A stretch of DNA of 64,000 bases, from contig OZ251539.1 of NCBI GenBank assembly GCA_965243135.1, forward strand, positions 2,880,001 through 2,944,000, written 5' to 3'. Below, one piece after another: positions 892 through 25,552 of this stretch. Position numbers and translations under genes: made by a program. The notes below the pieces were generated by a model that saw only the letters and a list, made by a program, of their open reading frames with translations, had not been told where the DNA came from and made no database searches. Source of the stretch: Alphaproteobacteria bacterium (GTDB lineage: Bacteria; Pseudomonadota; Alphaproteobacteria; MPNO01; UBA830). Position 1 is the stretch's first letter, and each line of letters begins with the position of its first letter.

Positions 892-2436
892 TCAGACGGT
901 CTCGAACTCGAACCCGACGATGTTGCGCTCCTCCCGGCCGAACTCGATGCCGATCAGGTGAACCGGCACGCCCGGACGCCGGTACTTGTCCGCGTAGCCG
1001 CGCGCCCGAATCTGCGCCAGCGCCCGGCCTTCCGGCTTCCCGTCCGCGACCTTGAACTCGAACAGGTAGACGTTGCCGCCGTACAGGACCGTCAGGTCCG
1101 AGCGGCCGCGCGCCGTGCTCTCCTCGGCGCGGACGTCCATCCCCGCCGCCACGAAGTGCGAGTAGAACACGCTCGCGTAGTGCGCCTCGTAGCCCGCCAT
1201 CCCCGTGTTCGCGTACCACTCGTTCGGAATGCTCGCCAGAAACGCCCGGAACCGCCGCTCGAGGCCCGCGAAGTCGTTCGTCCGCATCAGGCGGCGCAGC
1301 TCCCGGCTCTCCGCCGCGACCGTGATATCCGGCGCCATCGCCTTCAGCAGGAGCGCGTTCAGGCTGCGCTTCACCTCCCGGTTCGGGTAGTCCAGCCGGA
1401 AGAGACGAACGCCCTCGTCCTGCTCTTCGCCGACGATGGTCAGGTAGCCGGTCTGGAACAAAAGCGTCTCGACGGGTATGCGGTCGATATCGATGGCCGA
1501 CAGCAGATCGTCGTCCGCGACCAGGTCCTCCAGGGCCGGCGGCGCGAACCGGCGCCGGGACAGAAGGTCGGCGAGGAAGGTCGGCGTGCCGCTCAGGAAC
1601 CAGTGGTTGCCGAACTCGTGCGTTTCGAAGAGAAGGAGGATGTCGAACGGGTTGTAGACCTTCTCCGCGCCGCGCCAGTTGTAGCCGTTGTACCAGCGCC
1701 GGACTTCGTTCCGGTCCAGGCCCTCGAGTTCCGGAGCGAAGACCGCGTCCAGTTCCGCGTCCGTGTAGCCGCAGATGGCGCCGAACCGCGGATCGAGGGT
1801 GATGTCGCGCAGGTTGTTCAGGCCCGAGAACAGGCCCGCCTGCGAGAACTTGCTCACGCCGGTAAGGAAGGCGAACCGGATATGCGCGTCGCAGTCCTTG
1901 ACGACGCTGTAGAAGCCGCGCAGGAAGTCGCGGTTGGCCAGCGCCCGTTCCCGGTCGCCGAGCGCGTCCAGGATCGGCTTGTCGTACTCGTCCACCAGCA
2001 CGACCACGCGCCGCCCGGACCGCTCGTGCAGTTCGGAGATCAGATGGTGAAGGCGGTCGGAGGCGTCCGGGTAGCCGCATCGGACGCCGGCGCGCTTTTC
2101 GGCGGCGTCGAGCTGCATCATCGCGTTCCTGTGCAGCCGGTCAGGGTCGCCGAGATTGCCGGAACCGAAACTGATCCGCACGACCGGATGGCGCGCCGAC
2201 CAGTCCCACTTGCCGTGCACGGCGAGGCCCCGGAACAGCTCTTCGCTTCCCTCGAATAACTCCTGCAGCGTGTCCACCAGCAAGCTCTTGCCGAACCGGC
2301 GCGGACGCGACAGGAAATAGTACTGACCCCCTTCGACGAGGCGGCGCACATGGTCCGTCTTGTCGACGTAGTAGCAGCCCAGCTCCCGGATTTTGCGGAG
2401 GGAGGTCAAGCCGGTCGGAAGCATGCGTCTCGTCAT
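892..2436 (-). CDS. AAA-ATPase-like (P-loop) + PD-(D/E)XK nuclease (PDDEXK_9/DUF1703-type) protein, copy 1, intact
   Basis: YYVDKT, Walker A SRPRRFGKS, Walker B LVDEYDKP, FLTGVSKF, WYNGY, YNPF, QTGYLT, and C-terminal GRSDL...LFEFK...ALAQI nuclease motifs. The ORF track starts at 2457; the promoter geometry favours ATG 2436. Confidence 0.93.
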   Translation of the reverse strand: MTRRMLPTGLTSLRKIRELGCYYVDKTDHVRRLVEGGQYYFLSRPRRFGKSLLVDTLQELFEGSEELFRGLAVHGKWDWSARHPVVRISFGSGNLGDPDRLHRNAMMQLDAAEKRAGVRCGYPDASDRLHHLISELHERSGRRVVVLVDEYDKPILDALGDRERALANRDFLRGFYSVVKDCDAHIRFAFLTGVSKFSQAGLFSGLNNLRDITLDPRFGAICGYTDAELDAVFAPELEGLDRNEVRRWYNGYNWRGAEKVYNPFDILLLFETHEFGNHWFLSGTPTFLADLLSRRRFAPPALEDLVADDDLLSAIDIDRIPVETLLFQTGYLTIVGEEQDEGVRLFRLDYPNREVKRSLNALLLKAMAPDITVAAESRELRRLMRTNDFAGLERRFRAFLASIPNEWYANTGMAGYEAHYASVFYSHFVAAGMDVRAEESTARGRSDLTVLYGGNVYLFEFKVADGKPEGRALAQIRARGYADKYRRPGVPVHLIGIEFGREERNIVGFEFETV

Positions 2437-2442
2437 CAGAAG

Positions 2443-2471
2443 AGGGTAGGCCGCCATGCCGGAACCGTCAA
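2443..2471 (-). promoter_or_regulatory. sigma70-type promoter of copy 1 (TTGACG-17 nt-TACCCT-6 nt-ATG), leaderless geometry
   Basis: The same spacing is conserved at copies 2, 5, 6 and 7; there is no Shine-Dalgarno between the -10 box and the ATG. Confidence 0.65.
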
Positions 2472-2789
2472 GGAGAGCGTCATTAACGCGTCAGTATGTC
2501 CGGTCCATGTACCAAATGTCTGTGTCCACCTTGCCGCCGGCCTCGGGCGTGTGGTGCCGGTGTGACCGCTCCGACACCCGAACTGACGGCAACCCTAACC
2601 CGGCGCGCGTCCCTTTCCCGCGAATATCCGTGAATTTACGGCGGGTTGCGGCGGACGGCACATCCCTTTTTTCGGGGCGTCGGAGAGAGTTGCGTTCGGG
2701 GAACTTTTCCGCGATACGCCGAACTTGCGCAGCGCTCGTAGCGTTCGCTACCCGGGTGATGGTCCGCATTGAGAACCGTCTTTCAGTCC

Positions 2790-3260
2790 CGCCGCAGGGG
2801 CTTCGGCATCCTTGACCGGCAGCGCGTTTTTCACGTCGAGCTTGCCGCGGCCCTGCGGTTTGCCGACCCGGACCCAGTTGGCTGCGCGGTAGTCAAGTGC
2901 CCGCGAATCGGGGGCTTTCGCAGAAGGTCTCAAGCAGTGCGGGACGCAAGGCGTAACGAAGGTTCCAGTCGTCGGGCAAACATCGTTTGCGCGAAGGGAT
3001 GCAAGATGTTTGATTCTGACCCGGGGCAGTAACCTTGCGTCGTTGACGACGAAAGGTGCACTGGCGGCGCACCGATGAACTTGTCCCGTGGCGCAATCTT
3101 CCACGCGGCGGGCGCGGCCAGCGGTTCGCCCTCTGCGGAGCGGACGAAGTGCTGCGCGCCGGGCATGGGCGTAAAGCCGAGGTAGCGGGAAGGCGGCCCG
3201 ACTCTCGCTGGCGTTGCGGACGGGTGTGCAGCGGACGGACCTGACGTTCGGGAGTTGGGA
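2790..3260 (-). pseudogene. DUF4338-domain (transposase-associated) gene remnant
   Basis: Frameshifted reverse-strand fragments RPALLETFCESPRFAGT and YRAANWVRVGK..GRGKLD are typical of DUF4338. Confidence 0.7.
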
Positions 3261-5340: not shown

Positions 5341-5394
5341 CGACGCCGACCGGTAGATTCCTGCGAGCGGCGGCGGCGTCTTGCCCGCGCCGTT

Positions 5395-5631
5395 CGCGCT
5401 GGCCAGCCCGGCGCGGAAGACTGTTCTCGAGCGAGCGGCTGTCCGCGCCGCAAACGGCCACGGTCGCGGCGTCGAGCCGCAGTTCGGCGCGCGCGACCCG
5501 CCAGGCGCGGTGCATGGCCGGCGTCGCCGCCCGGCTCCAGGAAGCGGCAGTGGCGGCCGCCGCGAGCGCGCGGTCGGTCGGCGCTTTTCGCGGAGGCGCC
5601 GCCTGCGTCCGAACGGCAACGGCTCCCGGCC
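5395..5631. repeat. array spacer type Y (repeated at about 17430-17636)
   Basis: A near-identical stretch gactgttct...gcaaacggccacggtcgcggcgtcgagccgcagttcgg...cgcttttcgcg lies downstream of copies 2 and 7. Confidence 0.8.
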
Positions 5632-7176
5632 TTAGACGGTCTCGAACTCGAACCCGACGATGTTGCGCTCCTCCCGGCCGAACTCGATCCCGATCAGGTG
5701 GATCGGCACGCCCGGACTCCGGTACTTGTCCGCGTAGCCGCGCTCCCGTATCTGCGCCAGCGCCCGGCCTTCCGGCTTCCCGTCCGCGACCTTGAACTCG
5801 AACAGGTAGACGCCGCCGCCGTGCAGGACCGCAAGGTCCGAGCGTCCGCGCGCCGTGCTCTCCTCGGCGCGGACGTCCATCCCCGCCGCCACGAAGTGCG
5901 AGTAGAACACGCTCGCGTAGTGCGCCTCGTAGCCTGCCATGCCCGTGTTCGCGTACCACTCGTTCGGGATGCTCGCCAGGAACGCCCGGAACAGCGCCTC
6001 GAGGCCCGCGAAGTCGTTCGTGCGCATCAGGCGGCGCAGTTTCCGGCTTCCCGCTGCGACCGTGACGTCCGGCGCCATCGCCTCCAGCAGGAGCGCGTTC
6101 AGGCTGCGCTTCACCTCATGGTTCGGGTAGTCCAGCCGGTAAAGAAGCGCGTCGTCGTCCAGTTCCTCGTCGGCGATGGTCAGGTAGCCGGTCTGGAACA
6201 GAAGCGCCTCGACGGGGATGCGGTCGACGTCGATCGCCGACAGCAACGCGTCGTCCGCGATCATGCCCTCCAGGTCCGGCGCCGCGACCTGGCGCCGCGA
6301 CAGAAGGTCGGCGAGAAAGGTCGGCGTGCCGGTCCGGAACCAGTGCGCCTCGAACCGGCGGCGCCGGAAAAGCAGCAGAATATCGTGCGGGTTGTAGACC
6401 CTCTCCGGTCCGAGCCAGTTGTAGCCGTTGTACCAGCGGCGGATCTTGTCCCGGTCCAGGCCCTCGAGTTCCGGGGCGAAGACCGCGTCCAGTTCCGCGT
6501 CCGTGTAGCCGCAGATGGCCGAGAACTCCGGCTCCAGCGTGACGTCGATCAGGTTGTTCAGGCCCGAGAACAGGCCCGCCTGCGAGAACTTGCTCACCCC
6601 CGTCAGGAAAACGAAACGGAGATGCCTGTCGTTGTCCTTGATCATCGCGTAGAAGCCGCGCAGGAAATCGCGGTTGGCCAGCGCCAGTTCCCGGTCGCCG
6701 AGCGCGTCCAGAATCGGCTTGTCGTATTCGTCGACCAGCACGACCGCCTGCTGCCCGGTGCGCTCGTGCAGGGCCTCGATCAATTCCCCGAAACGGTTCG
6801 ACGCCTCGACAGCGCCCGGTTCGAGGCCGGCGCACCTCTCCGCCGCCGCCAGCTGCCGTTCCACGCTTCTCCGAACGAAGTCCGGGGAGTCGAAATTGCC
6901 GCCGCCAAAGCTGATCCGCACGACAGGATGGCGCGCCGACCAGTCCCACCTGCCGTGTACGGCGAGATCACGAAACAGTTCCTCGCTTCCCTCGAACAGT
7001 TCCTGCAGCGTGTCCACCAGCAGGGTCTTGCCGAACCGGCGCGGACGCGACAGGAAATAGTAATCGCCCTCTTCGACGAGGCGGCGCGCATGGTCCGTCT
7101 TGTCGACGTAGTAGCAGTCCCTCGTCCGGATTTTCCGGAGGGAGGTCAAGCCGGTCGGAAGCATGCGTCTCGTCAT
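5632..7176 (-). CDS. AAA-ATPase-like + PD-(D/E)XK nuclease protein, copy 2, intact
   Basis: Same motif set as copy 1 (SRPRRFGKT, LVDEYDKP, GRSDL..LFEFK). The ORF track extends upstream to 7554, but similarity to the other copies starts at MAAYP/MTRRML. Confidence 0.93.
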   Translation of the reverse strand: MTRRMLPTGLTSLRKIRTRDCYYVDKTDHARRLVEEGDYYFLSRPRRFGKTLLVDTLQELFEGSEELFRDLAVHGRWDWSARHPVVRISFGGGNFDSPDFVRRSVERQLAAAERCAGLEPGAVEASNRFGELIEALHERTGQQAVVLVDEYDKPILDALGDRELALANRDFLRGFYAMIKDNDRHLRFVFLTGVSKFSQAGLFSGLNNLIDVTLEPEFSAICGYTDAELDAVFAPELEGLDRDKIRRWYNGYNWLGPERVYNPHDILLLFRRRRFEAHWFRTGTPTFLADLLSRRQVAAPDLEGMIADDALLSAIDVDRIPVEALLFQTGYLTIADEELDDDALLYRLDYPNHEVKRSLNALLLEAMAPDVTVAAGSRKLRRLMRTNDFAGLEALFRAFLASIPNEWYANTGMAGYEAHYASVFYSHFVAAGMDVRAEESTARGRSDLAVLHGGGVYLFEFKVADGKPEGRALAQIRERGYADKYRSPGVPIHLIGIEFGREERNIVGFEFETV

Positions 7177-7182
7177 CCGGAG

Positions 7183-7211
7183 AGGATAGGCCGCCATGCC
7201 GGAACCGTCAA
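7183..7211 (-). promoter_or_regulatory. sigma70-type promoter of copy 2 (TTGACG-17-TATCCT-6-ATG)
   Basis: Seen in the sequence; geometry conserved across copies. Confidence 0.65.
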
Positions 7212-9061: not shown

Positions 9062-9577
9062 TCAGGCGGGCTCGCAGCCGACGACGTTGCGCTCCTCGCG
9101 GCTGAACTCCACCAGGTGGACCGAACGCCCGAAGCGGCGGTACTTGTCCGCGTAGCCCTTCTCCCGCAGCTGCGCGAGCGCGGTCCCCTCCCGCCCGCGC
9201 TCCACCACCTTGAACTCGAACAGGTAGACGCGCCCGCCGGCGCGGATCGCCATGTCGGCGCGCCCCCGGCTGCCGCTGTCCTCCGCCACCGGCTCTAGGC
9301 CCTCCATCAGGAAGCAGCTGTGGATGACGCTCGCGTAGTGGGCCTCGTACTTCGCGACCGGGCTGTTCATGTACCACTGGTGCGGGGCGAAGACGCCGCG
9401 GAACAGGGTTTCGAGACGCTCGAAGTCGTTCGCCGCCAGCACCCAGCCGCAGGTTCTCCGTCTCCTCGCGGGCCTCGTCCGGGAGCAGTTCTTCCAGCAG
9501 GGCCTCGCCCAGGCTCTGGCGCACCTCGAGGTTCGGGTAGTCCAGCCGGTAGCGCCCGTCCTCCTCGCCGGCGATGG
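9062..9577 (-). pseudogene. AAA-ATPase/PD-(D/E)XK paralogue copy 3, 3' exon (divergent nuclease domain)
   Basis: YEAHYASVIHSCF, AEDSGSRGRADMAI, YLFEFKVVE, ALAQLREKGYADKY; resumes at CC ATC GCC after the intron; contains frameshifts. Confidence 0.82.
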
Positions 9578-10374
9578 GTAGAGTCGAGGACTGGCGCGTT
9601 AGCTTTAGGGTCCGGGTTCCGTCGCTTTCGCTCCGGGCCTCAGTCCGGCTCCCGTGGCCACGTTTCCAGTCCCCGCTCTCCGAACCGGACGTGCGGATTT
9701 CCCGCGCCTCCAGCCCTCGCCCACGGATGGATTGTCAGCGTTCCCAAAAACGGCCGGTTTTCCGGACCCGGGAGTTGCACCGTCTCCCATATTTTCCGCC
9801 TGTTCTCGCTTTCCAACCCGTCGCCGAACCTGTTTACGCCTCGACGACCCCGGCCTCTCGACCGGGTTCCTTCGCTTGTGACGCTTCCGGGATCTCTGGC
9901 ATGTAGTCGGTTGTTAGGCATAGCCAGATCCCTTCTCCCTTGCGGCGCCCTTCCTCGCGCCCCTTTCCTCCGCCGGCGTTACCCGGCTTCTCCGGTACTA
10001 CGGGCCTCTCCGCCACCCGCCGGCCTGCCCCTCGCGGGGTTCCGGTTGACTCGTGCGCGTCACCGACAGGGCTTCCCGTGTTGCTGCTTCCTTCATCTTC
10101 CATGCGTGCCGACACCCCGGCGGAAACGGTCGGTGCTCTTGTCGTTCTCTTCCCGACCGTCGGCGGCTTTCCCCTAGGAGGGTCAGCTCCCGCATTGACC
10201 GTTTCGAGGCCTGGTTCACTGCTCGTTTCGGCCCGCATGTTCGCTGAGCGGCCTTCGCCGCCCTTTCCCAGAGTGCTTCAGCCTACCCTCCGTAAACCGC
10301 CCTGGCCGCTACCAACCGGAACGACAGTTGTTGGGTGGGATTCGCACCCACGAAAGCGCCTTTCCACGGCGCAC
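9578..10374 (-). mobile_element. group II intron, ORF-less (intron-encoded RT deleted), 797 nt
   Basis: 5' end GTGCG at 10374; 3' end ...CCTCGACTCTAC at 9578; domain V-like GCGGGAAATCCGCACGTCCGGTTCGGAGAGCGGGG; removing it rejoins CTC A|CC ATC (QTGYLTIAGEE). Confidence 0.9.
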
Positions 10375-11335
10375 TGAGGTAGCCGGTCTGGAACAGAAGG
10401 GCCTGGACCGACATCCTGTCCACGTCGAAGGCCGAGAGCAGGCTCTCGCCATGCCGTCCAGGCGAGGAGTGGGCAGGTCGCGGCGCGCCAGCGTCTCCAC
10501 CAGGAAGGTCGGCGTGCCGCTCTCGAACCAGTACGGGCGGAACTCGCGCCGCCGAAACAGCAGCAGGAGGCCGAACGGATTGTAGACCCTCTCCGGCCCG
10601 CGCCAGTTGTAGCCGTTGTACCAGCGACGGACCTCGTCCCGGTCCAGGCCATCGAGTTCCGGGGCGAAGACCGCGTCCAGTTCCGCGTCCGTGCAGCCGC
10701 AGATATCCGAGAATTCCGGCTCCAGCGTGACGCAGGTTGTTCAGGCCCAGAACAGGCCCGCCTTCGAGAATTTGCTCACTCCCGTCAGGAAAACGAAACG
10801 GAGATGCCTGTCGCAGGCCACCCCGTACAGGCTGCGCAGGAAGTCCCGGTTGGCCCGCGCCAGCTCCCGGTCGCCGAGCGCGTCCAGAATCGGCTTGTCG
10901 TACTCGTCCACCAGAACCACCGCCCGCTGCCCGGTGCGTTCGTGCAGGTCCGCGATCAGTTCCCGGAAGCGGACCGAAACTCTGGCGCCGCCCGGCGCCG
11001 GCCCGCCTCTCCGCCGCCTTCAGTTGCGATTCCGTTTCTTCCCGAACTCCGTCCGGGTCGCCGAAATCGCCCCCGCCGAAATCCAGCCGCACGACAGGAT
11101 GACGCATCGACCAGTCCCACCTGCCGTGCACGGCGAGGCCCCGGAACAGCTCCTCGTTTCCCTCGAACAACTCCTGCAGCGTGTCCACCAGCAGGGTCTT
11201 GCCGAACCGGCGCGGACGCGACAGGAAATAGTACTTGCCCCATGAGGCGGCGCGCATGCTCCGTCTTGTCGACGTAGTAGCAGTCCATCCCCCGGATCTC
11301 CCGGAGGGAGGAAAAGCCGAGCATGCGTTTCGTCA
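10375..11335 (-). pseudogene. AAA-ATPase/PD-(D/E)XK paralogue copy 3, 5' exon (frameshifted)
   Basis: FSSLREIRGMDCYYVDKT, YYFLSRPRRFGKTLL, DEYDKP, LLFQTGYL up to the intron junction. Confidence 0.82.
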
Positions 11336-11399: not shown

Positions 11400-12190
11400 T
11401 GCCTGTGCCCCGTTTTGCTGGACTGACAGTATTCATCTTGAAGTTCCTGAAGGAAAGCCATAGCGGCGAGTTGAGCGTAGCCGACCGGTTGCGAACCTGG
11501 CGGGTTGCGCTTGAAGTGGCCGCCCAAGGCCTGCCTGTCCCCCACAATTTGATGCTGAACGCTACTAACAATATTCATCCCGAAGTTCCTGGTGAAAGGC
11601 CGCGAGTTGGAGGTAGCCGTACCACATCAACTCCGCGCCTGGCGGGTCTCGCTTGCGCTTGAAGTGGCCGCCGAGGGTGGCGACCAGGAAGACAGCCTCT
11701 CCGAGGTTTTTCGGTGCGCTCTTGCGCCGCGGCGAACAGCGTCAGCACCTGGAGTTCGACGTCCGAGAACAGGATCTCGGGCGGCAGGTCAGGTAATTCC
11801 CGTCCGAGGCGTGCCATGAATGCGCCAAGCGACGACCATGGCGGTGGCGCGCTGCAGGCGCTCGGCCGTCCGGTTCTCGAGTTCCTTGCAGCCGGACTTC
11901 AAGACGCGAAAATAATCTTCAATTCTCCAGCGCAGGCCGTACCAGGGCGTTCGGCGTTGTCGGCGCTTTCGACCGGCAGCGTCGTCAACAGGAACCACTC
12001 CAGGCGTTCGGCGCGGGGGAGCTTTCTCGCGGACATGGACGATCGTCACGGGGGCCTTGCGCTTCGCCGGCAATTCGACTTTGAGGTAGCGCAGCCGTGG
12101 CCTGACGCTTTGGTCGCATGGCCCTCGCGGCCTGCTTGCTTGCGCGTGCGCTCAGACGCTTGACCTCGACGACCCGCTTGCCCTGCGCCG
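11400..12190 (-). mobile_element. IS4-family (IS50/Tn5-like) transposase remnant, 3' half, with a duplicated 3' end
   Basis: Fragments PAKRKAPVTIVHVRE, FLLTTLPV, WYGLRWRIEDYFRVLKSGC..ENRTAERLQRA (Y..RW.IE..FR.LKSG signature); homologous to 21038-21700. Confidence 0.8.
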
Positions 12191-13863: not shown

Positions 13864-15408
13864 TCAGGCGGTCTCGAACTCGAACCCGACGATGTTGCGC
13901 TCCTCCCGGCCGAACTCGATCCCGATCAGGTGGACCGGCACGCCCGGTCGCCGGTACTTGTCCGCGTAGCCGCGCTCCCGAATCTGCGCCAGCGCCCGGC
14001 CTTCCGGCTTCCCGTCCGCGACCTTGAACTCGAACAGGTAGACGTTGCCGCCGTACAGGACCGCGAGGTCCGAGCGGCCGCGCGCCGTGCTCTCCTCGGC
14101 GCGGACGTCCATCCCCGCCGCCACGAAGTGCGAGTAGAACACGCTCGCGTAGTGCGCCTCGTAGCCTGCCATGCCCGTGTTCGCGTACCACTCGTTCGGA
14201 ATGCTCGCCAGGAACGCCCGGAACAGATTCTCGAGGCCCGCGAAGTCGTTCGCCCGCATCAGGCGGCGCAACTCCCGGCTCTCCGCCGCGACCGTGACCT
14301 CCGGCGCCATCGCCTTCAGCAGGAGCGCGTTCAGGCTGCGTTTCACCTCCTGGTTCGGGTAGTCCAGCCGGTAGAGGCGCGTGTCTTCGTCCCGCTCCTC
14401 GTCGGCGATGGTCAGGTAGCCGGTCTGGAACAACAGCGCCTCGACGGGAATGCGATCGACGTCAATGGCCGACAGCAGGTCGTCGTCCGCGACCAGATCC
14501 TCCAGGGCCGGCGGCGCGAACCGGCGCCGCGACAGAAGGTCGGCGAGGAAGGTCGGCGTGCCGGTCCGGAACCAGTGCGCCTCGAACTGGCGGCGCCGGA
14601 AAAGCAGCAGGACATCGTACGGGTTGTAGAGTTTCTCCGCGCCTCGCCAGTTGTAGCCGTTGTACCAGCGGCGGACCTCGTCCCGGTCCAGGCCGTCGAG
14701 TTCCGGGGCGAAGACCGCGTCCAGCTCCGCGTCCGTGTAGCCGCAGATGGACGAGAACTCCGGCTCCAGCGTGATGTCGATCAGGTTGTTCAGGCCCGAA
14801 AACAGGCCCGCATGCGAGAACTTGCTCACCCCCGTCAGGAAAACGAAACGGAGATGCCTGTCGCAGTCCTTGATCGCCCCGTACAGGCCGCGCAGGAAGT
14901 CGCGATTGGCCCGCGCCAGTTCCCGGTCGCCGAGCGCGTCCAGGATCGGCTTGTCGTACTCGTCCACCAGCACGACCGCCTGTTGTCCGGCGCGCTCGTG
15001 CAGGGCCTCGATCAATTCCCCGAAACGGTTCGACGCCTCGACGGATCCCGGTTCGAGGCCGGCGCGCCTCTCCGTCGCCGCCAGCTGCCGTTCCACGGTT
15101 ATCCGAACCCCGTCCGGGACGACGAAATTGCCCCTGCCGAAGCTGAGCCGCACGACCGGATGGCGCGCCGACCAGTCCCACCCGTCGTGCACGGCGAGGC
15201 CCCGGAACAACTCCTCGCTTCCCTCGAACAGCTCCTGCAGCGTGTCCACCAGCAAGCTCTTGCCGAACCGGCGCGGACGAGACAGAAAATAGTAATCGCC
15301 CCCTTCGACGAGCCGGCGCACATGCTCTGTCTTGTCGACGTAGTAGCAATCCCTCGTCCGGATTTTCCGGAGGGAGGTCAAGCCGGTCGGAAGCATGCGT
15401 CTCGTCAT
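13864..15408 (-). CDS. AAA-ATPase-like + PD-(D/E)XK nuclease protein, copy 5, intact
   Basis: Full motif set; the ORF track gives 13864..15429; the promoter favours ATG 15408. Confidence 0.93.
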   Translation of the reverse strand: MTRRMLPTGLTSLRKIRTRDCYYVDKTEHVRRLVEGGDYYFLSRPRRFGKSLLVDTLQELFEGSEELFRGLAVHDGWDWSARHPVVRLSFGRGNFVVPDGVRITVERQLAATERRAGLEPGSVEASNRFGELIEALHERAGQQAVVLVDEYDKPILDALGDRELARANRDFLRGLYGAIKDCDRHLRFVFLTGVSKFSHAGLFSGLNNLIDITLEPEFSSICGYTDAELDAVFAPELDGLDRDEVRRWYNGYNWRGAEKLYNPYDVLLLFRRRQFEAHWFRTGTPTFLADLLSRRRFAPPALEDLVADDDLLSAIDVDRIPVEALLFQTGYLTIADEERDEDTRLYRLDYPNQEVKRSLNALLLKAMAPEVTVAAESRELRRLMRANDFAGLENLFRAFLASIPNEWYANTGMAGYEAHYASVFYSHFVAAGMDVRAEESTARGRSDLAVLYGGNVYLFEFKVADGKPEGRALAQIRERGYADKYRRPGVPVHLIGIEFGREERNIVGFEFETA

Positions 15409-15414
15409 CTGAAG

Positions 15415-15443
15415 AGGGTAAGCCGCCATGCCGAAGCCGTCAA
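15415..15443 (-). promoter_or_regulatory. sigma70-type promoter of copy 5 (TTGACG-17-TACCCT-6-ATG)
   Basis: Seen in the sequence; conserved geometry. Confidence 0.65.
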
Positions 15444-15797: not shown

Positions 15798-17337
15798 TCA
15801 GGCGGTCTCGAACTCGAACCCGACGATGTTGCGCTCCTCCCGGCCGAACTCCACCCCGATCAGGTGGACCGGCACGCCCGGACGCCGGTACTTGTCCGCG
15901 TAGCCGCGCTCCCGAATCTGCGCCAGCGCCCGACCTTGCGGCTTCCCGTCCGCGACCTTGAACTCGAACAGATAGACGTTGCCGTTGTACAGGAGCGTCA
16001 GGTCCGAGCGGCCGCGCGCCGTGCTCTCCTCCGCACGGACGTCCATGCCCGCCGCCACGAAGTGCGAATAGAACACGCTCGCATAGTGAGCCTCGTAGCC
16101 CGCTATGCCCGTGTTCGCGTACCACTCGTTCGGAATGCTCGCCAGGAACGCCCGGAACAGATTCTCGAGGCCCGCGAAGTCGTTCGCCCGCATCAGGCGG
16201 CGCAACTCCCGGCTCCCCGCCGCGACCGCGACGTCCGGCGCCATCGCCTTCAGCAGAAGCGCGTTCAGGCTGCGCTTCACCTCCTGGTTCGGGTAGTCCA
16301 GCCGGTAGAGGTGCGTGTCCTCGTCCCGCTCCTCGTCGACGATGGTCAGGTAGCCGGTCTGGAACAGCAACGCCTCGACGGGAATGCTGTCGACGTCGAT
16401 GACCGACAGCAGGTCGTCGCCCGCGGCCAGGTCCTCCAGGGCCGGCGGCGCGAACCGGCGCCGCGACAGAAGGTCGGCGAGGAAGGTCGGCGTGCCGGTC
16501 CGGAACCAGTGCTCCTCGAACTCGCGGCGCCGGAAAAGCAGAAGGACATCGTACGGGTTGTAGAGTTTCTCCGCGCCTCGCCAGTTGTAGCCGTTGTACC
16601 AGCGGCGGACCTTGTCCCGGTCCAGGCCCTCGAGTTCCGGGGCGAAGACCGCGTCCAGTTCCGCGTCCGTGTAGCCGCAGATGGACGAGAACTCCGGCTC
16701 CAGCGTGACGTCGATCAGGTTGTTCAGGCCCGAGAACAGGCCCGCATGCGAGAACTTGCTCACCCCCGTCAGGAAAACGAAACGGAGATGCCTGTCGTTG
16801 TCCTTGATCATCGCGTAGAAGCCGCGCAGGAAGTCGCGGTTGGCAAGCGCCAGTTCCCGGTCGCCGAGCGCGTCCAGAATCGGCTTGTCGTATTCGTCCA
16901 CCAGCACGACCACGCGTCGCCCGGCGCGCTCGTGCAGGGCCTCGATCAATTCCCCGAAACGGTTCGACGCCTCGGCAGCGCCCGGTTCGAGGCCGCCGCG
17001 CCTCTCCGCCGCCGCCAGCTGCCGTTCCACGCTTCTCCGAACGAAGTCCGGGGAGTCGAAATTGCCGCCGCCGAAGCTGATCCGCACGACGGCGCGCCGA
17101 CCAGCCCCACCCGTCGTGCACCGCGAGATCACGAAACAGCTCCTCGCTTCCCTCGAACAGTTCCTGCAGCGTGTCCACCAGCAGGGTCTTGCCGAACCGG
17201 CGCGGACGCGACAGGAAATAGTACTGGCCCCCTTCGACGAGGCGGCGCACATGGTCCGTCTTGTCGACGTAGTAGCAGTCCAACTCCCGGATTTTCCGGA
17301 GAGAGGTCAAGCCGGTCGGAAGCATGCGTCTCGTCAT
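15798..17337 (-). pseudogene. AAA-ATPase/PD-(D/E)XK paralogue copy 6 (single frameshift near 17090; possibly intact in vivo)
   Basis: The N-terminus MTRRMLPTG...SRPRRFGKT is in one frame and VVRISFGG...FEFETA in another; a 5-nt deletion relative to copy 2 lies in WSARHPVV. Confidence 0.85.
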
Positions 17338-17343
17338 CTGGAG

Positions 17344-17636: not shown

Positions 17637-19159
17637 TTAGACGGTCTCGAACTCGAACCCGACGATGTTGCGCTCCTCCCGGCTGAACTCCACCCCGATC
17701 AGGTGGACCGGCACGCCCGGACGCCGGTACTTGTCCGCGTAGCCGCGCTCCCGAATCTGCGCCAGAGCCCGGCCTTCCGGCTTCCCGTCCGCGACCTTGA
17801 ATTCGAACAGGTAGACGCCGCCGCCGTGCAGCACCGCAAGGTCCGAACGGCCGCGCGCCGTGCTCTCCTCCGCGCGGACGTCCATCCCCGCCGCCGCGAA
17901 GTGCGAGCACGCTCGCGTAGTGGACCTCGTAGCCCGCCATGCCCGTGTTCGCGTACCACTCGTTGCTCGCCAGGAACGCCCGGAACCGCCGCTCGAGGCC
18001 CGCGAAGTCGTTCGTCCGCATCAGGCGCCGCAACTCCCGGCTCTCCGTCGCGACCGCGACGTCCGGCGCCATCGCCTCCAGCAGGAGCGCGTTCAGGCTG
18101 CGCTTCACCTCATGGTTCGGGTAGTCCAGCCGGTAGAGGGGCGCGTCCTCGTCCCGCTTCTCGTCGGCGACGGTCAGGTAGCCGGTCTGGAACAGCAGCG
18201 CCTCGACGGGAATGCGGTCGACGGCCGACAGCAGGTCGTCGTCCGCGATCATGCCCTCCAGGGCCGGCGCCGCGACCCGGCGCCGCGCCAGAAGGTCGAC
18301 GAGAAAGGTCGGCGTGCCGCTCTGGAACCAGTACGGGCGGAATCTGCGCTTGTCGAACAGCAGCAGGATGTCGTGCGGATTGTAGACCCTCTCCGGTCCG
18401 AGCCAGTTGTAGCCGTTGTAGCAGCGGCGGACCTTGTCCCGGTCCAGGCCGTCGAGTTCCGGGGCGAAGACCGCGTCCAGCTCCGCGTCGGTGTAGCCGC
18501 ATACGGCGCCGTAGCGCTCGTCCAGCGTGATGTCGTTCAGGTTGTTCAGGCCCGAGAACAGGCCCGCCTGCGAGAACTTGCTCACCCCCGTCAGAAAAAC
18601 GAAGCGGAGATGCTCGTCGCAATCCTTGATCGTTCCGTACAGGCTGCGCAAGAAGTCGCGGTTGGCCCGCGCCAGTTCCCGGTCGCCGAGCGCGTCCAGG
18701 ATCGGCTTGTCGTACTCGTCCACCAGAACGACCGCCCGCTGCCCGGTGCGCTCGTGCAGGGCCTCAATCAATTCCCCGAAACGGTTCGACGCCTCGACGG
18801 ATCCCGGTTCGAGGCCGGCGCGCCTCTCCGCCGCCGCCAGCTGCCTTTCCACGGTTATCCGAACCCCGTCCGGGACGACGAAATTGCCCCTGCCGAAGCT
18901 GAGCCGCACGACGGCGCGCCGACCAGTCCCACTCGCCGTGCACGGCGAGGCCCCGGAACAGTTCCTCGCTTCCCTCGAACAGCTTCTGCAGCGTGTCCAC
19001 CAGAAGAGTCTTGCCGAACCGCCGCGGACGCGACAGGAAATAGTACTTGCCCCTCTCGACGAGGCGGCGCGCATGGTCCGTCTTGTCGACGTAGTAGCAG
19101 TCCATCCCCCGGATCTCCCGGAGGGAGGAAAAGCCGATCGGAAGCATGCGTTTCGTCAT
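17637..19159 (-). pseudogene. AAA-ATPase/PD-(D/E)XK paralogue copy 7 (two frameshifts plus small in-frame deletions)
   Basis: MTKRMLPIGFSSLREIRGMDCYYVDKT...; middle in the 15652..19074 frame; C-terminus MDVRAEES...FEFETV in ORF 17637..17885. Confidence 0.85.
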
Positions 19160-19165
19160 TCGAAG

Positions 19166-19555: not shown

Positions 19556-20975
19556 TCAGACGGTCTCGAACCCGACGATGTTGCGCTCCTCCCGGCCGAA
19601 CTCGATCAGGTGGACCGGCACGCCCGGACGCCGGTACTTGTCTGCGTAGCCGCGCTCCCGAATCTGCGCCAGCGCCCGGCCTTGCGGCTTCCCGTCCGCG
19701 ACCTTGAACTCGAACAGGTAGACGCCGCCGCCGTACAGGACCGCAAGGTCCGAACGGCCGCGCGCCGTGCTCTCCTCGGCGCGGACGTCTATCCCCGCCG
19801 CCGCGAAGTGCGAGCACGCTCGCGTAGTGCGCCCCCGCCAAGCCCGTGTTCGCGTACCACTCGTTGCTCGCCAGGAACGCCCGGAACAGCCGCTCGAGGC
19901 CCGCGAAGTCGTTCGCCAGGCGGCGCAGCTCCCGGCTCTCCGCCGCGACCGCGACGTCCGGCGCAGCAGGGGCGCGTTCAGGCTGCGCTTCACGGTTCGG
20001 GTAGTCCAGCCGGTAGAGGGGCGCGTCCTCGTCCTGCTCTTCGCCGGCGACGGTCAGGTAGCCGGTCTGGAACGGCAACGCCTCGACGGAAATGCGGTCG
20101 ACGGCCGACAGCAGGTCGTCGTCCGCGAACATGCCCTCCAGGGCCGGCGCCGAGATCCGGCGCCGCGCCAGCGTCTCGACCATGAAGGTCGGCGTACCGC
20201 TCAGGAACCAGTAGTTGCCGAACCCGCGCTCGGCGAGCAGCAGCAGGATGCCGAACGGATTGTAGAGCCTCTCCGGCCCGCGCCAGTTGTAGCCGTTGTA
20301 CCAGCGGCGGATTTTCTCCCGGTCCAGGCCATCGAGTTCTGGAGCGAAGACCGCGTCCAGCTCGTCGTCCATGTAACCGCAAATGTCCGAGAACTCCGGC
20401 GCCAGCGTGATGTCGCGCAGGTTGTTCAAGCCAGAGAACAGGCCCGCCAACTTGCTCACCCCCGTCAGGAAAACGAAACGGAGATGCCTGTCGTTGTCCT
20501 TGATCATTGCGTAGAAGCCGCGCAGGCAGTTGCGGTTCGCCAGTTCCCGGTCGCCGAGCGCGAACCGGCTTGTCGTACTCGTCCACCAGCACGACCGCCC
20601 GCTGCCCGGTGCGCTCGTGCAGGACCAATTCCCCGAAACGGTTCGACGCCTCGACGGGTTCGAGGCCGGCGCGCCTCTCCGTCGCCGCCAGCTGCCGTTC
20701 CACGAGGTCCGGGGAGTTGCCGCCGCCGAAGCTGATCCGCACGACGGCGCGCTGACCAGTCCCACCCGCCGTGCACGGCGAGGCCCCGGAACAACTCCTC
20801 GCTTCCCAGCTCCTGCAGCGTGTCCGCCAGCAAGCTCTTGCCGAACCGGCGCGGACGCGACAGGAAATAGTACTTGCCCCACGAGGCGGCGCGCATGCTC
20901 CGTCTTGTCGACGTAGTAGCAGTCCATCCCCCGGATCTCCCGGAGGGAGGAAAAGCCGAGCATGCGTTTCGTCAG
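19556..20975 (-). pseudogene. AAA-ATPase/PD-(D/E)XK paralogue copy 8 (many small deletions)
   Basis: Motif fragments GMDCYYVDKT, SRPRRFGKS, DEYDKP, WYNGYNW, GRSDL..LFEFK are spread over three frames. Confidence 0.85.
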
Positions 20976-21037
20976 AGAGTAGGCCGCCGCGCCCGTCAAG
21001 AAGTCGGCGGCGGCAGGCCTGTCCGCGTCCCCTGGCG

Positions 21038-23242
21038 CTACCTGTGCCCCGTTTTGCTGGACTGACAGTATTCATCTTGAAGTTCCTGAAGGAAAGCCAT
21101 AGCGGCGAGTTGAGCGTAGCCGACCGGTTGCGAATCTGGCGGGTTGCGCTTGAAGTGGCCGCCCAGGGCGGCGATCAGGGAGACGGCCTCTCCGAGATTT
21201 TTCGGCGCGTGCTTGCGGCGCGGCGAAGATCGCCAGCATCCGGAGTTCGACGTCCGAGAACGGGATCTCGGGCGGCAGGTCGGACAATTCCCGTCCGGGG
21301 CGGGCCCGAATCCGCCAGGCGACGACCATTGCGGCGGCGCGCTGCAGGCGCTCGGCCGTCCGGTTCTCCAGGCAGCCGGACTTCAGGACCCGGAGATAAT
21401 CTTCAATTCCCCAACGCAGGCCGTACCACGGCGTTCGGCGTCGTCGCCATTCTCGACCGGCAGCGTCGTCAACAGGAACCGCCGGTCGGCTTCGGTTGGC
21501 GGGTTTTTCTCGCGGACATGCATGATCGTCACCTCGACGGGCGCCTTGCCCTTCGCCGGCAACTCGACCTTGAGGTAACGCAGCGCGACCGCGGCCTGAC
21601 GGGGCTCTCGCACGGCCTTCGCGGCCTGCTTGCTGGCGCGCGCGCTCAAACGCTTGAGGACGCGCTTGCCCCGCGCCGGGCTCTTCCGCACCTTGTCGAA
21701 CAGCTTGTCGGCATCGTCCTTGCCGAGAACCCGGTTCGTCTTCGCCCACACCAGGAGTTCCACTCCCGGCGTCCGCTCGCGGCACTCGACGAACGGCGAA
21801 GTCCGCCTCCCGGGACGCCGACCGCCTGCACGCCGTCGAGCGCCGCGGCAGCCTCGGCGCTGCGGCAGCCTCGGCGCTGCGGCAGCCTCGGCGCTGCGGC
21901 CCTCGGCCCTTCTTCTTCTCGCGAGGCTTGTCCTTCTCCGCGCCCGGCTGCGGCGCGTCGAACGCCGCCCGCAGAACCCCAAGCGGCAGCCCTTCCGCGT
22001 TCACCGCGGCGTGCAGGTTCAGACCGCGGGCCCCGGCGCCGGTCTGGTCCCCAACCCTTCCCCCACTTCGCGAAGTTCAGCGCGCTGCTGTCCTGCACGC
22101 ACAGCACCGTCCTTTCCCCCTGCCCGCAGCGTCTGGCGCCGGTGCAGGATGTCCTCCACCGTCACCGCTTCGCTGTCCGGCGTGCAGACGGTAGTAAGCC
22201 CTGGCTCGGTTCCCCCTCGCGGCGCCCGTGAATGCCGACGCCTCCGCCTGGCGCCAGGTCACCAGGCGCGCATCCCGGCGCACCGCCGAACTCCTGCTCC
22301 GCCCAGTTCTCCCGACCGGCGCCAACCTCCAACGGCACAAGTGGCGCGCGAGGCTCGCGCGCCCGCCAGTCCGCGTTCGTGACAGCCTTCGGCGTTGCCG
22401 CGTGGCCCTGTCGCCCCCGGCCGGCGGTCTCGCCACGCCGCCGCCCGAAAACTCGTTCCCGCATGCTGGTCTTTGTCTCCGGACGGGCGGTAGCGTTCCT
22501 CGAAATCGCCCCCCACCCTGCGGACCACGCCGCCCAGCACATGCGAGGTGCGGCACTCGACGCCGGGCCGGAAAGCGGCGCAAGCCGGCCGCCCGGTGCA
22601 AATGGGCGCGCCTTCCCGCGTCGTCCCAGCCGAAGGTCGCGGCACTCGAGCCTGTGCGCAGAGGCTGCGAACCCGACGGCCCCCAGCCAGCCATGCGCCG
22701 ACCCTGCCAGGTGCCGCAATTGACAACCGACCAACGGACCGGCGCCGCGCTCCTCCTCCGGCATCGTGTTCCATGCGCCGCTCGTCACCGGCGCCAGCTC
22801 CGGACCCTCGACCGCACCGACTTCCTCCGGTACGCTCTTCGGCGGAGGAACCGGTTCCGCAAGACGCCGCGGGCGCCGTGCGCCGCCGCCCGTCGGCAAC
22901 GGCAGCGAAATCCGCCCCGCCGCCTCGAACTCCGCCAACGCCTTCAGGCAGCCCGCTCGCTGCAGGCGGCCAAGCCCGTCCCGAAACCCGAACGCTACGC
23001 GACCTCGCTGCGACGAGCGAAGACCTCGTTCGCCAGCAAGCCTTGCAAGCGCGTAAAATCGCCCTGAAGGCTTTGCCGAATCTGATTCTGAACCTCCATG
23101 CCGGGCACCGTAGCGAATCGGCTGGCCAGAGTTCAGCAAAACGGGGCAACGGCAGGGCAAGCCGAAGGTCAAGGCCGACGACGACGGCAAGCCGCGGGCG
23201 ACGTCTCCGGAACCTCGCAGCGCGGCTCCCGGGAGCCACAAC
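21038..23242 (-). mobile_element. degenerate IS4-family element with a DUF4338-fused transposase
   Basis: N-terminal DUF4338-like fragments (PLVGCQLRHL, HGWLGAVGFAASAHRL), Tn5-like ENWAEQEFGGA, VLCVQDSSALNF, EGLPLGVLRA, WYGLRWGIEDYLRVLKSGC. Confidence 0.8.
21845..21900. repeat. 17-bp tandem repeat (gcggcagcctcggcgct) x3 inside the IS4 transposase
   Basis: Directly visible in the sequence. Confidence 0.75.
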
Positions 23243-23935
23243 TTCTCCCGGTCCAGGCCCTCGAGTTCCGGGGCGAAGACCGCGTCCAGCTCCGCGTCAG
23301 TGTAGCCGCAGATGGACGAGAACTCCGGCTCCAGCGTGACGCAGGTTGTTCAGGCCCGAGAACAGGCCCGCATGCGAGAACTTGCTCACGCCGGTAAGGA
23401 AGGCGAACATGCGCGTCGCAGTCCTTGACGACGCTGTAGAAGCCGCGCAGGAAGTCGCGGTTGGCCAGCGCCCGTTCCCGGTCGCCGAGCGCGGACCGGC
23501 TTGTCGTACTCGTCCACCAGCACGACCGCACGCCGCCCGGCGCACTCGTGCAGTTCGGAGATGGTGAAGGCGGTCGGAGGCGTCCGGGTAGCCGCATCGG
23601 ACGCCGGCGCGCTTTTCGGCGGCGTCGAGCTGCATCATCGCGTTCCTGTGCAGCCGGTCGGGATCGTCGAGCTTGCCGGAACCGAAGCTGATCCGCACGA
23701 CGGTGCGCCGACCAGTCCCACCCGCCGTGCACGGCGAGGCCCCGGAACAGCCCCTCGCTCCCCTCGAACAGCTCCTGCAGCGTGTCCACCAGCAGGCTCT
23801 TGCCGAACCGGCGCAGACGCGACAGGAAATAGTACTTACCCCCCTTCGACGAGGCGGCGCGCATGGTCCGTCTTGTCGACGCAGTCCATCCCCCGGATCT
23901 CCCGGAGGGAGGAAAAGCCGAGCATGCGTTTCGCC
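23243..23935 (-). pseudogene. AAA-ATPase/PD-(D/E)XK paralogue copy 9 (5' half, truncated by the IS4 element at LDREK)
   Basis: YYFLSRLRRFGKS, PDRLHRNAMMQLDAAEKR (copy 1 type), FLTGVSKFSHAGLFSG; frameshifted. Confidence 0.82.
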
Positions 23936-24079
23936 GCGAGAGTAGGCCGCCCCGCCCGTCAAGGAGGAGGCGGGTCTGCAGGCCGAACGCCGCGCCGGAG
24001 TTCCCACGCCTCCCCTGGCGGCGCGTCCCGTCGTGCCGCCTGCCGAAACGTCCGAACGGGACGTCGGCGGCTCCCGGCT

Positions 24080-25552
24080 TCAGACGGTCTCGAACTCGAA
24101 CCCGACGATGTTGCGCTCCTCCCGGCCGAACTCGATGCCGATCAGGTGGACCGGCACGCCCGGACTCCGGTACTTGTCCGCGTAGCCGCGTTCCCGAATC
24201 TGCGCCAGCGCCCGGCCTTCCGGCTTCCCGTCCGCGACCTTGAACTCGAACAGGTAGACGCTGCCGCCGTACAGGACCGCAAGGTCCGAACGGCCGCGCG
24301 CCGTGCTCTCCTCCGCGCGGACGTCCATCCCCGCCGCCACGAAGTGCGAGTAGAGCACGCTCGCATAGTGCGCCTCGTAGCCCGCCATGCCCGTGTTCGC
24401 GTACCACTCGTTCGGAATGCTCGCCAGGAACGCCCGGAACAGCCGCTCGAGGCCCGCGAAGTCGTTCGCCCGCATCAAGCGGCGCAACTCCCGGCTCCCC
24501 GCCGCGACCGCGACGTCCGGCGCCATTGCCTCCAGCAGAAGCGCGTTCAGGCTGCGCTTCACCTCATGGTTCGGGTAGTCCAGCCGGTAAAGAAGCGCGT
24601 CGTCGTCCAGTTCCTTGTCGGCGATGGTCAGGTAGCCGGTCTGAAACAAAAGCGCCTCGACGGGAATGCGGTCGATGTCGATGGCCGACAGCAGCGCGTC
24701 GTCCGCGATCATGCCCTCCAGGGCCGGCGCCGAGACCCGGCGCCGCGACAGAAGGTCGGCGAGGAAGGTCGGCGTGCCGGTCCGGAACCAGTGCGCCTCG
24801 AACTGGCGGCGCCGGAAAAGCAGCAGGATGTCGTGCGGGTTGTAGACCCTCTCCGATCCGAGCCAGTTGTAGCCGTTGTACCAGCGCCGGACCTTGTCCC
24901 GGTCCAGGCCATCGAGTTCCGGAGCGAAGACCGCGTCCAGCTCCGCATCCGTGTAGCCGCAGATGGCCGAGAACTCCGGCTCCAGCGTGACATCGATCAG
25001 GTTGTTCAGGCCCGAGAACAGGCCCGCCTGCGAGAACTTGCTCACCCCCGTCAGAAAAACGAAACGGAGCTGCCTGTCGCAGGCCTTGATCGCCCCGTAC
25101 AGGCTGCGCAGGAAGTCGCGGTTGGCCAGCGCCAGTTCCCGGTCGCCGAGCGCGTCCAGAATCGGCTTGTCGTATTCGTCGACCAGAACGACCGCCCGCT
25201 GCCCGGTGCGCTCGTGCAGCGCCTCGATCAATTCGTGGAAACGGACCGCCGCCCCGGCGGGGCCCGGTTCGAGGCCGGCGCGCCTCTCCGCCGTCGCCAG
25301 CTGCCTTTCCACGGTTCCCCGAACTCCGTCCGGGCCGTCGAAGCGGCCCACGCCGCTGAAATCCAGCCGCACGACCGGGTGGCGTGCCGACCAATCCCAC
25401 CTGCCGTGCACGGCGAGGCCCCGGAACAGCTCCTCGCTCCCCTCGAACAACTCCTGCAGCGTGTCCACCAGCAGGCTCTTGCCGAACCGGCGCGGACGCG
25501 ACAGGAAATAGTACATAAGGCACGGGCAGTCGTAGCGCCGACCAACGTTCAC
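24080..25552 (-). CDS. AAA-ATPase-like + PD-(D/E)XK nuclease protein, copy 10, open frame with a replaced N-terminus
   Basis: All motifs from YYFLSRPRRFGKS to FEFETV are present; the usual first ~35 aa (LPTG..YYVDKT) are replaced by MNVGRRYDCPCLM. Confidence 0.85.
   Translation of the reverse strand: MNVGRRYDCPCLMYYFLSRPRRFGKSLLVDTLQELFEGSEELFRGLAVHGRWDWSARHPVVRLDFSGVGRFDGPDGVRGTVERQLATAERRAGLEPGPAGAAVRFHELIEALHERTGQRAVVLVDEYDKPILDALGDRELALANRDFLRSLYGAIKACDRQLRFVFLTGVSKFSQAGLFSGLNNLIDVTLEPEFSAICGYTDAELDAVFAPELDGLDRDKVRRWYNGYNWLGSERVYNPHDILLLFRRRQFEAHWFRTGTPTFLADLLSRRRVSAPALEGMIADDALLSAIDIDRIPVEALLFQTGYLTIADKELDDDALLYRLDYPNHEVKRSLNALLLEAMAPDVAVAAGSRELRRLMRANDFAGLERLFRAFLASIPNEWYANTGMAGYEAHYASVLYSHFVAAGMDVRAEESTARGRSDLAVLYGGSVYLFEFKVADGKPEGRALAQIRERGYADKYRSPGVPVHLIGIEFGREERNIVGFEFETV

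Follow-up and report, generated by a model that had tools for sequence, protein, structure and literature searches.

A genome-wide family of recombining DUF1703 ATPase-nuclease genes in an alphaproteobacterial genome

The DNA studied here (the window; 64,000 nt, positions 2,880,001 to 2,944,000 of contig OZ251539.1, Alphaproteobacteria bacterium, assembly GCA_965243135.1) lies at 2.88 Mb of a single contig of 6,103,318 bp with 65% G+C. It carries 11 copies of one gene (12 nhmmer hits), every one on the minus strand, which an earlier note on this sequence had described as an array of nuclease genes diversified by recombination. We found that the array is the largest local cluster of a genome-wide family and not the unit, and that the copies of this family are true mosaics, formed when paralogues exchanged segments across conserved anchors through recombination or gene conversion. 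Judged from their domains, the genes are members of DUF1703, with a PF09820 ATPase and a PF08011 nuclease. The explanation that we favour as a whole, with a probability of about 0.7, is a recombining, genome-wide DUF1703 family built of self-contained gene units; that the proteins would serve as sensors is a much less certain part of it.

Results

The array genes belong to a DUF1703 family spread over the genome

The protein of copy 1 (P0001) matched AAA-ATPase_like (PF09820) at aa 14-210 (E 1.1e-59, 202 bits versus a cut-off of 26.1) and PDDEXK_9 (PF08011) at aa 423-514 (E 1.4e-18, 67.2 bits versus a cut-off of 25.5). The proteins of the family are 514-521 aa long. A search of the genome with P0001 gave 158 matches of 63-88% amino acid identity, and a DNA profile (nhmmer) gave 173 hits that occupy 217,546 bp, or 3.56% of the genome; by length, 124 of the hits were full length, 17 were more than half, and 32 were fragments. 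The intact set was defined as the 98 full-length tblastn matches minus 4 with end or stop problems. The resulting 94 genes open from Met8, with ATG as the start codon in 93/94, and the remaining 79 of the 173 copies were not intact.

DUF1703 was defined by a Walker A motif RPRRFGK[ST], a Walker B motif DEYD, nuclease motifs E/D/ExK/Q, and a four-part architecture (Knizewski et al. 2007, PMC1913061). In the intact copies, Walker A residues R51, P52, R53, F55, G56, and K57 were present in 94/94 and R54 in 93/94, with GK[ST] in 94/94. The Walker B motif was kept to a similar degree (D156 in 94/94; E157, Y158, and D159 each in 93/94), as were the nuclease residues E445 (94/94), D454 (89/94), E467 (94/94), K469 (93/94), and Q482 (90/94). 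Motifs and architecture are therefore the same as in the published definition, and the sections of that paper drawn on here contain no structural difference from the array genes; they do not deal with copy number or recombination. PF09820 is also tabulated among the domains of RdrA, PARIS, and Old-tin proteins in the portion of a review that we cite (PMC10952713). Our literature search found no experiment on the ATPase or nuclease activity of any DUF1703 member.

The intact genes fell into sequence groups of 49, 33, and 11 plus one outlier. The intact copies of the window belonged to the group of 33, and copy 3 was nearest another group. The 173 hits formed 84 clusters, 46 of which were solitary, and the window cluster with its 12 hits was the largest; in 30 of the 38 multi-copy clusters every copy lay on one strand. 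The earlier note had taken the array as the unit. This view had to be given up, since the hits are distributed genome-wide and the closest relatives of most 150-nt segments lie elsewhere.

Family copies are mosaics generated by recombination

The pairwise homoplasy index (PHI) test detected recombination in all three groups genome-wide, with 0/300 permutations as low as the observed value for the groups of 49, 33, and 11 genes (z -11.9, -13.1, and -11.1). When third codon positions only were used, the signal was retained (z -6.1, -7.7, and -5.3). We therefore rejected the view that the mosaics stem from convergent selection on amino acids, in that convergent protein evolution does not explain a pattern present at third positions. 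Within the window, six copies with 135 informative sites gave an observed value of 0.393 versus 0.516 +/- 0.014 after permutation (0/1000 as low, z ~-8.5); eight copies gave 0/1000, and the four open copies alone gave 3/1000. Trees were built for each third of the gene in the group of 33, and in approximately unbiased (AU) tests every third rejected those of the other two as well as the tree of the whole gene (log-likelihood difference 200-1223, p 5e-5 to 1e-74), so a single tree for all gene segments was rejected in this group.

The reassortment of sequence blocks was then counted in 93 intact genes (the outlier was omitted), each block being clustered at 85% aa identity. There were 15 types of the block at aa 98-146, which is modelled as a hairpin of two helices (see below), 8 types at aa 173-198, 13 at aa 259-300, 18 at aa 303-322, and 17 at aa 338-360. 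The nuclease block (aa 413-517) had 3 types. Nine of the 15 hairpin types were found on more than one nuclease group, giving 31 hairpin-by-nuclease combinations, and 70 distinct five-block combinations were present among the 93 genes. Linkage was tight between the hairpin block and aa 173-198; it also connected the three middle blocks with each other and with the nuclease. This pattern points to the very conserved aa 199-258 as the main exchange point. Together, PHI, the AU rejection, and block-type reassortment bore out the segmental gene conversion between conserved anchors that had been proposed in the earlier note.

When the nearest relative of each window copy was determined in 150-nt segments, it switched repeatedly, mostly to copies elsewhere on the chromosome with 93-100% identity, compared with the 85-93% by which whole family copies resemble each other in DNA. 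Pseudogenes and intact genes had stretches of 99-100% identity in common. Copy 1 shared such a stretch (99-100% over 150 nt) with a single-lesion pseudogene at 2.77 Mb, as did copy 7 with a fragment at 3.02 Mb. Paralogues thus swap segments by homologous recombination (gene conversion) across conserved stretches, chiefly aa 199-258, wherever in the genome they lie. Broken copies are partners in this exchange, and it does not run by the copying of silent cassettes into one expression site.

The family features of the window are listed below in window positions, with the copy numbers 1-10 of the earlier note and the supporting evidence in brackets.

356..685, minus strand: fragment, 5' part (profile 2-359), frameshifted (nhmmer; tblastn in two frames)
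892..2457, minus strand: copy 1 (P0001), intact predicted DUF1703 gene (Pfam, open frame, nhmmer)
2437..2475, minus strand: promoter-like motif of copy 1, TTGACG, 17 nt, TACCCT, ~6 nt, ATG (coordinates derived from motif spacing)
5635..7197, minus strand: copy 2, intact (tblastn, nhmmer)
9071..9581, minus strand: copy 3, 3' half (profile 994-1533), of the other main sequence group (nhmmer)
10375..11335, minus strand: copy 3, 5' half (profile 2-997), frameshifted (nhmmer, tblastn)
12181..13486, minus strand: copy 4, pseudogene with nine 5- or 6-nt deletions and a 3' truncation
13864..15429, minus strand: copy 5 (P0002), intact (Pfam, open frame)
15802..17337, minus strand: copy 6, complete apart from one 5-nt deletion (mosaic of 1-like, 2-like, and 5-like parts)
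17640..19159, minus strand: copy 7, pseudogene with two 5-nt (columns 247, 1273) and two 6-nt deletions
19562..20974, minus strand: copy 8, pseudogene with seventeen 5- or 6-nt deletions
23240..23935, minus strand: copy 9, 5' half alone (profile 3-734), frameshifted (carries the copy-1-type hypervariable block)
24083..25552, minus strand: copy 10, 490-aa open frame from GTG, family part from aa 45

Three of the window copies were thus intact, one was open but shortened at its 5' end, one had a single 5-nt deletion, and the others were frameshifted or truncated. The likely start of copy 1 is Met8 at 2436, its length of 521 aa being counted from the upstream ATG. Copy 10 was missing the conserved 5' end (the first 44 codons) and the upstream promoter motif.

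All nine motif distributions that the earlier note had read from these copies were reproduced by exact motif checks. The insert PDRLHRNAMM...DASDRL occurred in copies 1 and 9, NFDSPDFVRRSVERQ in copies 2 and 6, and NFV[VI]PDGVRITVERQ in copies 4, 5, and 7; none of the three was found in copies 3 or 10, nor in copy 8, which has a deletion there. FYAMIKDNDRH was present in copies 2, 6, and 8, and FYSVVKDCDAH in 1 and 9. In addition, WRGAEKLYNPYDVLL was shared by copies 5 and 6, WLG.ERVYNPHDILL by 2, 7, and 10, LDDDALLYRLDYPNHE by 2 and 10, and RDEDT.LYRLDYPNQE by 4, 5, and 6. The description of copy 6 as first 1-like, then 2-like, then 5-like also held among the window copies in 150-nt segments. 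The view that most of the variation falls in the ATPase region (aa 98-146) and the middle domain (aa 259-360), next to a conserved nuclease, was supported in outline. The nuclease was indeed more conserved (mean pairwise DNA identity 94.1%, range 90.4-97.7 in 8 copies, versus 87.6-87.7% in the first two parts of the gene), but to call it near-invariant was an overstatement.

Each copy is bounded as a unit with a promoter-like motif

Homology between copies started sharply ~50 nt before Met8 and faded over 30-100 nt past the stop codon. An ungapped boundary alignment gave the consensus of the shared upstream piece, CTTGACGGCTCCGGCGCGGCGGCCTACCCTCTTCGgATG, which reads TTGACG, 17 nt, TACCCT, ~6 nt, ATG. 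On average ~100 of the other 123 full-length copies, pseudogenes included, had this TTGACG-N17-TACCCT motif, and homology of the flanks dropped from ~100 to ~14 copies between -50 and -75. From its sequence we infer that the motif is a sigma-70-like promoter with an almost leaderless start. The unit is therefore sharp at its 5' boundary, at the -35 box, and decays gradually at its 3' boundary, and each copy with the motif is a self-contained (predicted) expression unit. No terminal or inverted repeats or target duplications were seen at the boundaries in an alignment of every third of the 124 full-length copies. When the flanks of two out of six solitary copies were searched for in four same-genus genomes, they mapped ~10 kb (inverted) to ~150 kb apart and with 66-82% alike DNA. 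The loci are rearranged and diverged in these genomes, which makes them unusable for empty-site comparison.

Selection and predicted fold of the variable regions

Nei-Gojobori counts were used to obtain the ratio of nonsynonymous to synonymous change (dN/dS) in the groups of 33 and 49, and the overall values were 0.45 and 0.44 respectively. The nuclease showed a low proportion of nonsynonymous differences (pN 0.02-0.05) with dN/dS of 0.13-0.4, and aa 286-329 was the only stretch with dN/dS of 1.0-1.5.

A structure was predicted by AlphaFold from an alignment of 41 sequences, namely four window sequences, 36 of the 80 related loci described below, and one same-genus copy; a wrong-frame row was dropped. 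The mean predicted local distance difference test score (pLDDT) of the model was 72.4, and its predicted template modelling score (pTM) was 0.60. In the model the hypervariable block formed two helices (107-123 and 132-147, pLDDT 81-94) that sit between strand 92-96 and the Walker B strand 151-156, and the variable block at aa 338-360 formed a beta-hairpin with strands 340-347 and 350-356. Foldseek matches of the model included Apaf-1, ORC4, Cdc6, Orc1-DNA, Avs3, CED-4, and MalT (E 1e-5 to 2e-3). As modelled, the protein combines an ORC/Cdc6- or STAND-like P-loop ATPase, a middle part made of helices and a beta-hairpin, and, at its C-terminus, a PD-(D/E)XK nuclease.

The DNA-contacting parts of Orc1/Cdc6 are the initiator-specific motif, a helical insertion, and the winged-helix hairpin. 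The variable hairpin of the family lies between strand 2 and the Walker B strand, which we take to be the place where the initiator-specific motif of Orc1/Cdc6 and DnaA touches DNA. This likeness favours nucleic-acid recognition as the predicted role of the variable blocks. STAND/Avs and ORC/Cdc6 NTPases (3j2t, 7jpq, 1fnn, 2qby, 8dgc, 8jns) likewise have a P-loop core followed by helical and winged-helix-like parts, and some Avs proteins carry a nuclease effector on the same chain, like the array protein. In contrast to STAND/Avs proteins, the array protein has its nuclease at the C-terminus, matches no PADLOC model, and is without a long repeat sensor domain, for which a length of 521 aa leaves no room.

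Copies are broken mostly by 5- and 6-nt deletions

Relative to the profile, gaps in the 79 non-intact copies were mostly of 5 nt (85) and 6 nt (146), with 13 of 7 nt; shorter gaps were rare, eight being of a single nucleotide, two of 2 nt, and one of 4 nt. Among the 31 full-length broken copies, 17 had a single lesion, which in 15 of the 17 was one 5-nt deletion, and an in-frame stop was found in just one of the 31. The deletions recurred at fixed profile columns and in many combinations, with column 247 affected in 17 copies, 450 in 12, 1272 in 9, 466 in 7, and 627 in 6. Exact reconstruction succeeded for 43 of 62 events; 24 of these allow a reading in which the deleted piece begins with AT on the coding strand, and 13 a reading in which it ends with AT. 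In the family consensus, only 27 of the 1544 dinucleotide positions are AT. For the most part, AT and three or four further bases were lost.

In the window, the deletion of copy 6 falls between 17091 and 17090 (column 247, codon 90), those of copy 7 at 18912/18913 and 17906/17907, and the promoter and start codon of copy 8 were damaged by deletions as well. Deletions of this size were also frequent outside the family, where comparison of the genome with itself yielded 397 distinct indel sites of 4 nt, 1149 of 5 nt, 776 of 6 nt, and 126 of 7 nt. The piece lost there was typically AT followed by three or four bases, with C in front of it and G behind it (for example ATCGA, ATTCG, ATCAG, or ATCCG). 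The deletions outside the family showed no replichore asymmetry (243 vs 254, 193 vs 193). Neither Ku (PF02735) nor the TnpB/Cas12f-type TNB domain (PF07282) was found in the genome, and a literature search, its entries judged superficially, returned nothing relevant on 5-bp deletion hotspots.

Four copies in a second species of the genus (L085-L088) had a net 5-nt deletion at the same column 247, which might be explained by a hotspot, by an old allele, or by translation of a split form. In two of the four both resulting frames were still open. The 31 deletion junctions of copies 4, 6, 7, and 8 were spanned by none of the public sequence pieces listed (32 of ~3,970), and the exact 29-nt junction of copy 6 had 0 matches in metagenome contigs. 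A degenerate 22-nt junction pattern hit 7 loci, 0/7 of which contained the family, and these hits were discarded as chance matches. We consider it unlikely that the deletions are artefacts, given that the local sequence is preserved in dozens of intact copies.

Relatives occur in many phyla

In a search of forty related genomes, matches were found in three of the four other same-genus genomes (21, 11, and 2; none above 59% identity) and in one same-order genome (9), and the remaining 36 had none. In a species-representative collection, 394 stretches encoded a relative, and the best 80 of these (loci L005-L084) were 57-64% identical. The best 80 came from metagenome-assembled genomes (MAGs) titled Gammaproteobacteria, Latescibacterota, Vicinamibacterales, Gemmatimonadota, Binatia, Thermodesulfobacteriota, Spirochaetia, and others, and five of these genomes had 7-34 matches each. 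Among the 46 genomes examined, the expansion described here was the largest. Public sequencing runs that contain words of the array include ones labelled sponge metagenome. Relatives in many phyla together with such runs suggest horizontal spread within one kind of community, and the family appears to travel within such a community and to expand independently in each lineage. A literature search, again with entries judged superficially, found no relevant report of a DUF1703 family in sponge symbionts.

Other sequences within and around the array

Two features within the array do not belong to the family.

9582..10374, strand not assigned: 0.79-kb repeat element splitting copy 3 (9-19 other genomic copies)
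21030..23150, strand not assigned: decayed 2.1-kb insertion sequence separating copies 8 and 9

The first interrupts copy 3 at profile position ~995, and no clear target duplication was read. The second has ~10 genomic copies of 70-76% identity, and a fuller copy (L105) contains an open reading frame (ORF) with DruA-like (PF14236) and Tnp_DNA_bind domains and a DDE_Tnp_1 ORF. The spacers at 7198-9070 and 2740-3400 are other repeats with 20-40 genomic copies, not always adjoining family copies, and their ORFs had no Pfam match; 8 of 10 spacer ORFs were without one. Tandem copies 4-8 have their 280-377-nt spacers in common, as expected from unequal crossing-over. An RmlD-like fragment lies within the array at 4829-5959, its match being limited to aa 284-364.

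Directly after copy 10 there is a secretin gene (PF00263, PF03958; 25581-27110), and G+C climbs from ~0.68 to 0.75. An AT-rich island with three ORFs was found at 53965-57737 (G+C 0.44-0.46, versus 0.69-0.77 before it). Its ORFs 1 and 2 match A and B of the PADLOC candidate PDC-M65, a putative defence system (E 3.8e-25 and 3.5e-60), and none of the three has a Pfam match.

Discussion

A recombining DUF1703 expansion is a published pattern, of which the genome studied here is an extreme new example. According to the parts of Siozios et al. (2019, PMC6387759) used here, Cardinium hertigii cCpun has 25 DUF1703 paralogues, a number ranked among the largest, and only 9.8% of species have at least 10 copies. 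The same source reports that RDP4 and PHI detected recombination, that the paralogues were not homogenised, and that several lineages expanded the family independently. Both systems share the two domains, many paralogues, and intragenic recombination without homogenisation, in that three sequence groups persist here and identity to P0001 is still 63-88%. They differ in number, with 173 hits and 94 intact genes here versus 25, and in divergence, since the paralogues of cCpun have a mean identity of 39% in the account cited. It is because the copies are closer here that discrete block types can be counted. In addition, ~80 copies are broken in the present genome, which is large, GC-rich, and not reduced, unlike that of Cardinium. 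What the present genome adds is the scale, blocks that resemble cassettes and can be counted, a unit bounded by its promoter-like motif, and a large share of pseudogenes.

As to function, we tentatively suggest that the proteins may be ATP-dependent nuclease sensors engaged in conflict, whether in defence against mobile DNA and phages or in an addictive or selfish role; we hold this with less than even confidence. The variable hairpin and the variable beta-hairpin region would set what is recognised, and recombination would keep a broad recognition repertoire.

Several results weigh against the favoured explanation or parts of it. P0001 had no match in NCBIfam or among PDB sequences, and 0 PADLOC families matched at E<=0.01. 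The Foldseek matches had low TM scores of 0.18-0.34. At aa 96-153, pN reached 0.20-0.25, but pS was also raised (~0.3) and dN/dS was ~0.67, not above 1, and old alleles kept and reshuffled by recombination fit the variation as well as positive selection does. The "combinatorial specificity" of the earlier note was not supported in the form given there: dN/dS was 1 or more just at aa 286-329, and specificity is best worded as something that the blocks may confer. One assembly does not reveal in which direction or how fast conversion proceeds. Public contigs were at most 309 nt among the pieces listed (32 of ~3,970), none of which bridges a gene, so that they confirm no mosaic junction on single molecules. 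Finally, 79 broken copies among 173 also fit a decaying selfish family.

Such a family is the alternative that survives best, although we consider it unlikely. Here the gene would be a selfish, self-propagating nuclease gene whose product breaks DNA, repair would copy the gene or parts of it to new or paralogous sites, and mosaics and dead copies would be by-products. The conserved unit, being merely promoter, ORF, and ~30-75 nt, agrees with this, as do the dispersal of the copies over 84 clusters, of which 46 are solitary, the share of broken copies, the nearest relatives (57-64% identity, best 80 of 394) in MAGs titled with many unrelated phyla, and the lineage-specific expansion apparent from 21, 11, 2, and 0 matches across four same-genus genomes. 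However, the boundaries have no visible terminal repeats or target duplications, an identity of 63-88% to P0001 means that there was no recent burst, and 30 of the 38 multi-copy clusters are same-strand tandems with shared spacers, as from unequal crossing-over. Nearly all of the 94 intact copies retain the catalytic residues, though a selfish element would need them too.

A further proposal concerns the deletions. If a dedicated process removed 5-6 nt at AT in repeats, it would act as an off-switch for the family, in line with the lone 5-nt deletion in 15 of the 17 single-lesion copies and the one in-frame stop in 31, and conversion from intact paralogues could re-activate the copies, so that the genome would hold a switchable repertoire of nuclease sensors and not mere decay. 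We regard this as quite improbable.

That pseudogenes serve as donor cassettes, as the earlier note had considered, agrees with the 99-100% identical 150-nt stretches shared by broken and intact copies, and deletion alleles recur in many combinations. The variation systems pilE/pilS, vlsE, and VSG use gene conversion from silent cassettes, and they resemble the family in segmental conversion among many paralogues, some of them broken, with combinatorial variants. In a system of this type one or few expressed genes would be rewritten from promoterless or broken donors. In contrast, the family has 94 intact genes and no distinct or single expression site, and nearly all of its full-length copies carry the motif; with ~100 copies each having its own conserved promoter-like motif, this is not a silent-cassette system, and the donor-cassette part of the claim was left unsupported. 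The products of pilE/pilS, vlsE, and VSG are surface antigens, whereas those of the array look like cytoplasmic enzymes. We therefore judge silent cassettes to be very unlikely.

Secreted effectors aimed at a host, as proposed for the DUF1703 proteins of Cardinium, are even harder to support. Secretion of the Cardinium paralogues is predicted in the cited part of PMC6387759, and some public runs with the label sponge metagenome contain words of the array; but the N-terminus MTRRMLPTGLTSLRKIRELGCYYVDKT, judged by eye, has no hydrophobic signal-like stretch, and the coupling of an ATPase to a nuclease resembles intracellular enzymes.

A chimeric consensus assembled over near-identical repeats is the least credible alternative: the array is highly repetitive and public contigs are too short to bridge a gene, but the same block reassortment is present in 93 open genes dispersed over one 6.1-Mb contig, and copies differ by 7-15% in DNA, which makes collapse unlikely. 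In public data, 16 runs from 6 studies contain words of the 9-kb stretch at 12100-21100 (share 0.06-0.53), and each of 4 runs aligned from 4 studies covered all 30 bins with few differences. In three studies, contigs of 139-304 nt match unique array spacers.

The spectrum of 5-6-nt deletions, if confirmed at read level, would represent an unusual bacterial mutation process affecting all repeats of the genome. DUF1703 is among the larger bacterial families of unexplained function, and 94 intact, recently recombining copies constitute a natural experiment on it. The parts free to vary are the two-helix hairpin in the ATPase domain, as modelled, and the beta-hairpin region, and those that are fixed are the catalytic residues and the three nuclease types. 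Together, these variable and fixed parts provide precise targets for swap experiments.

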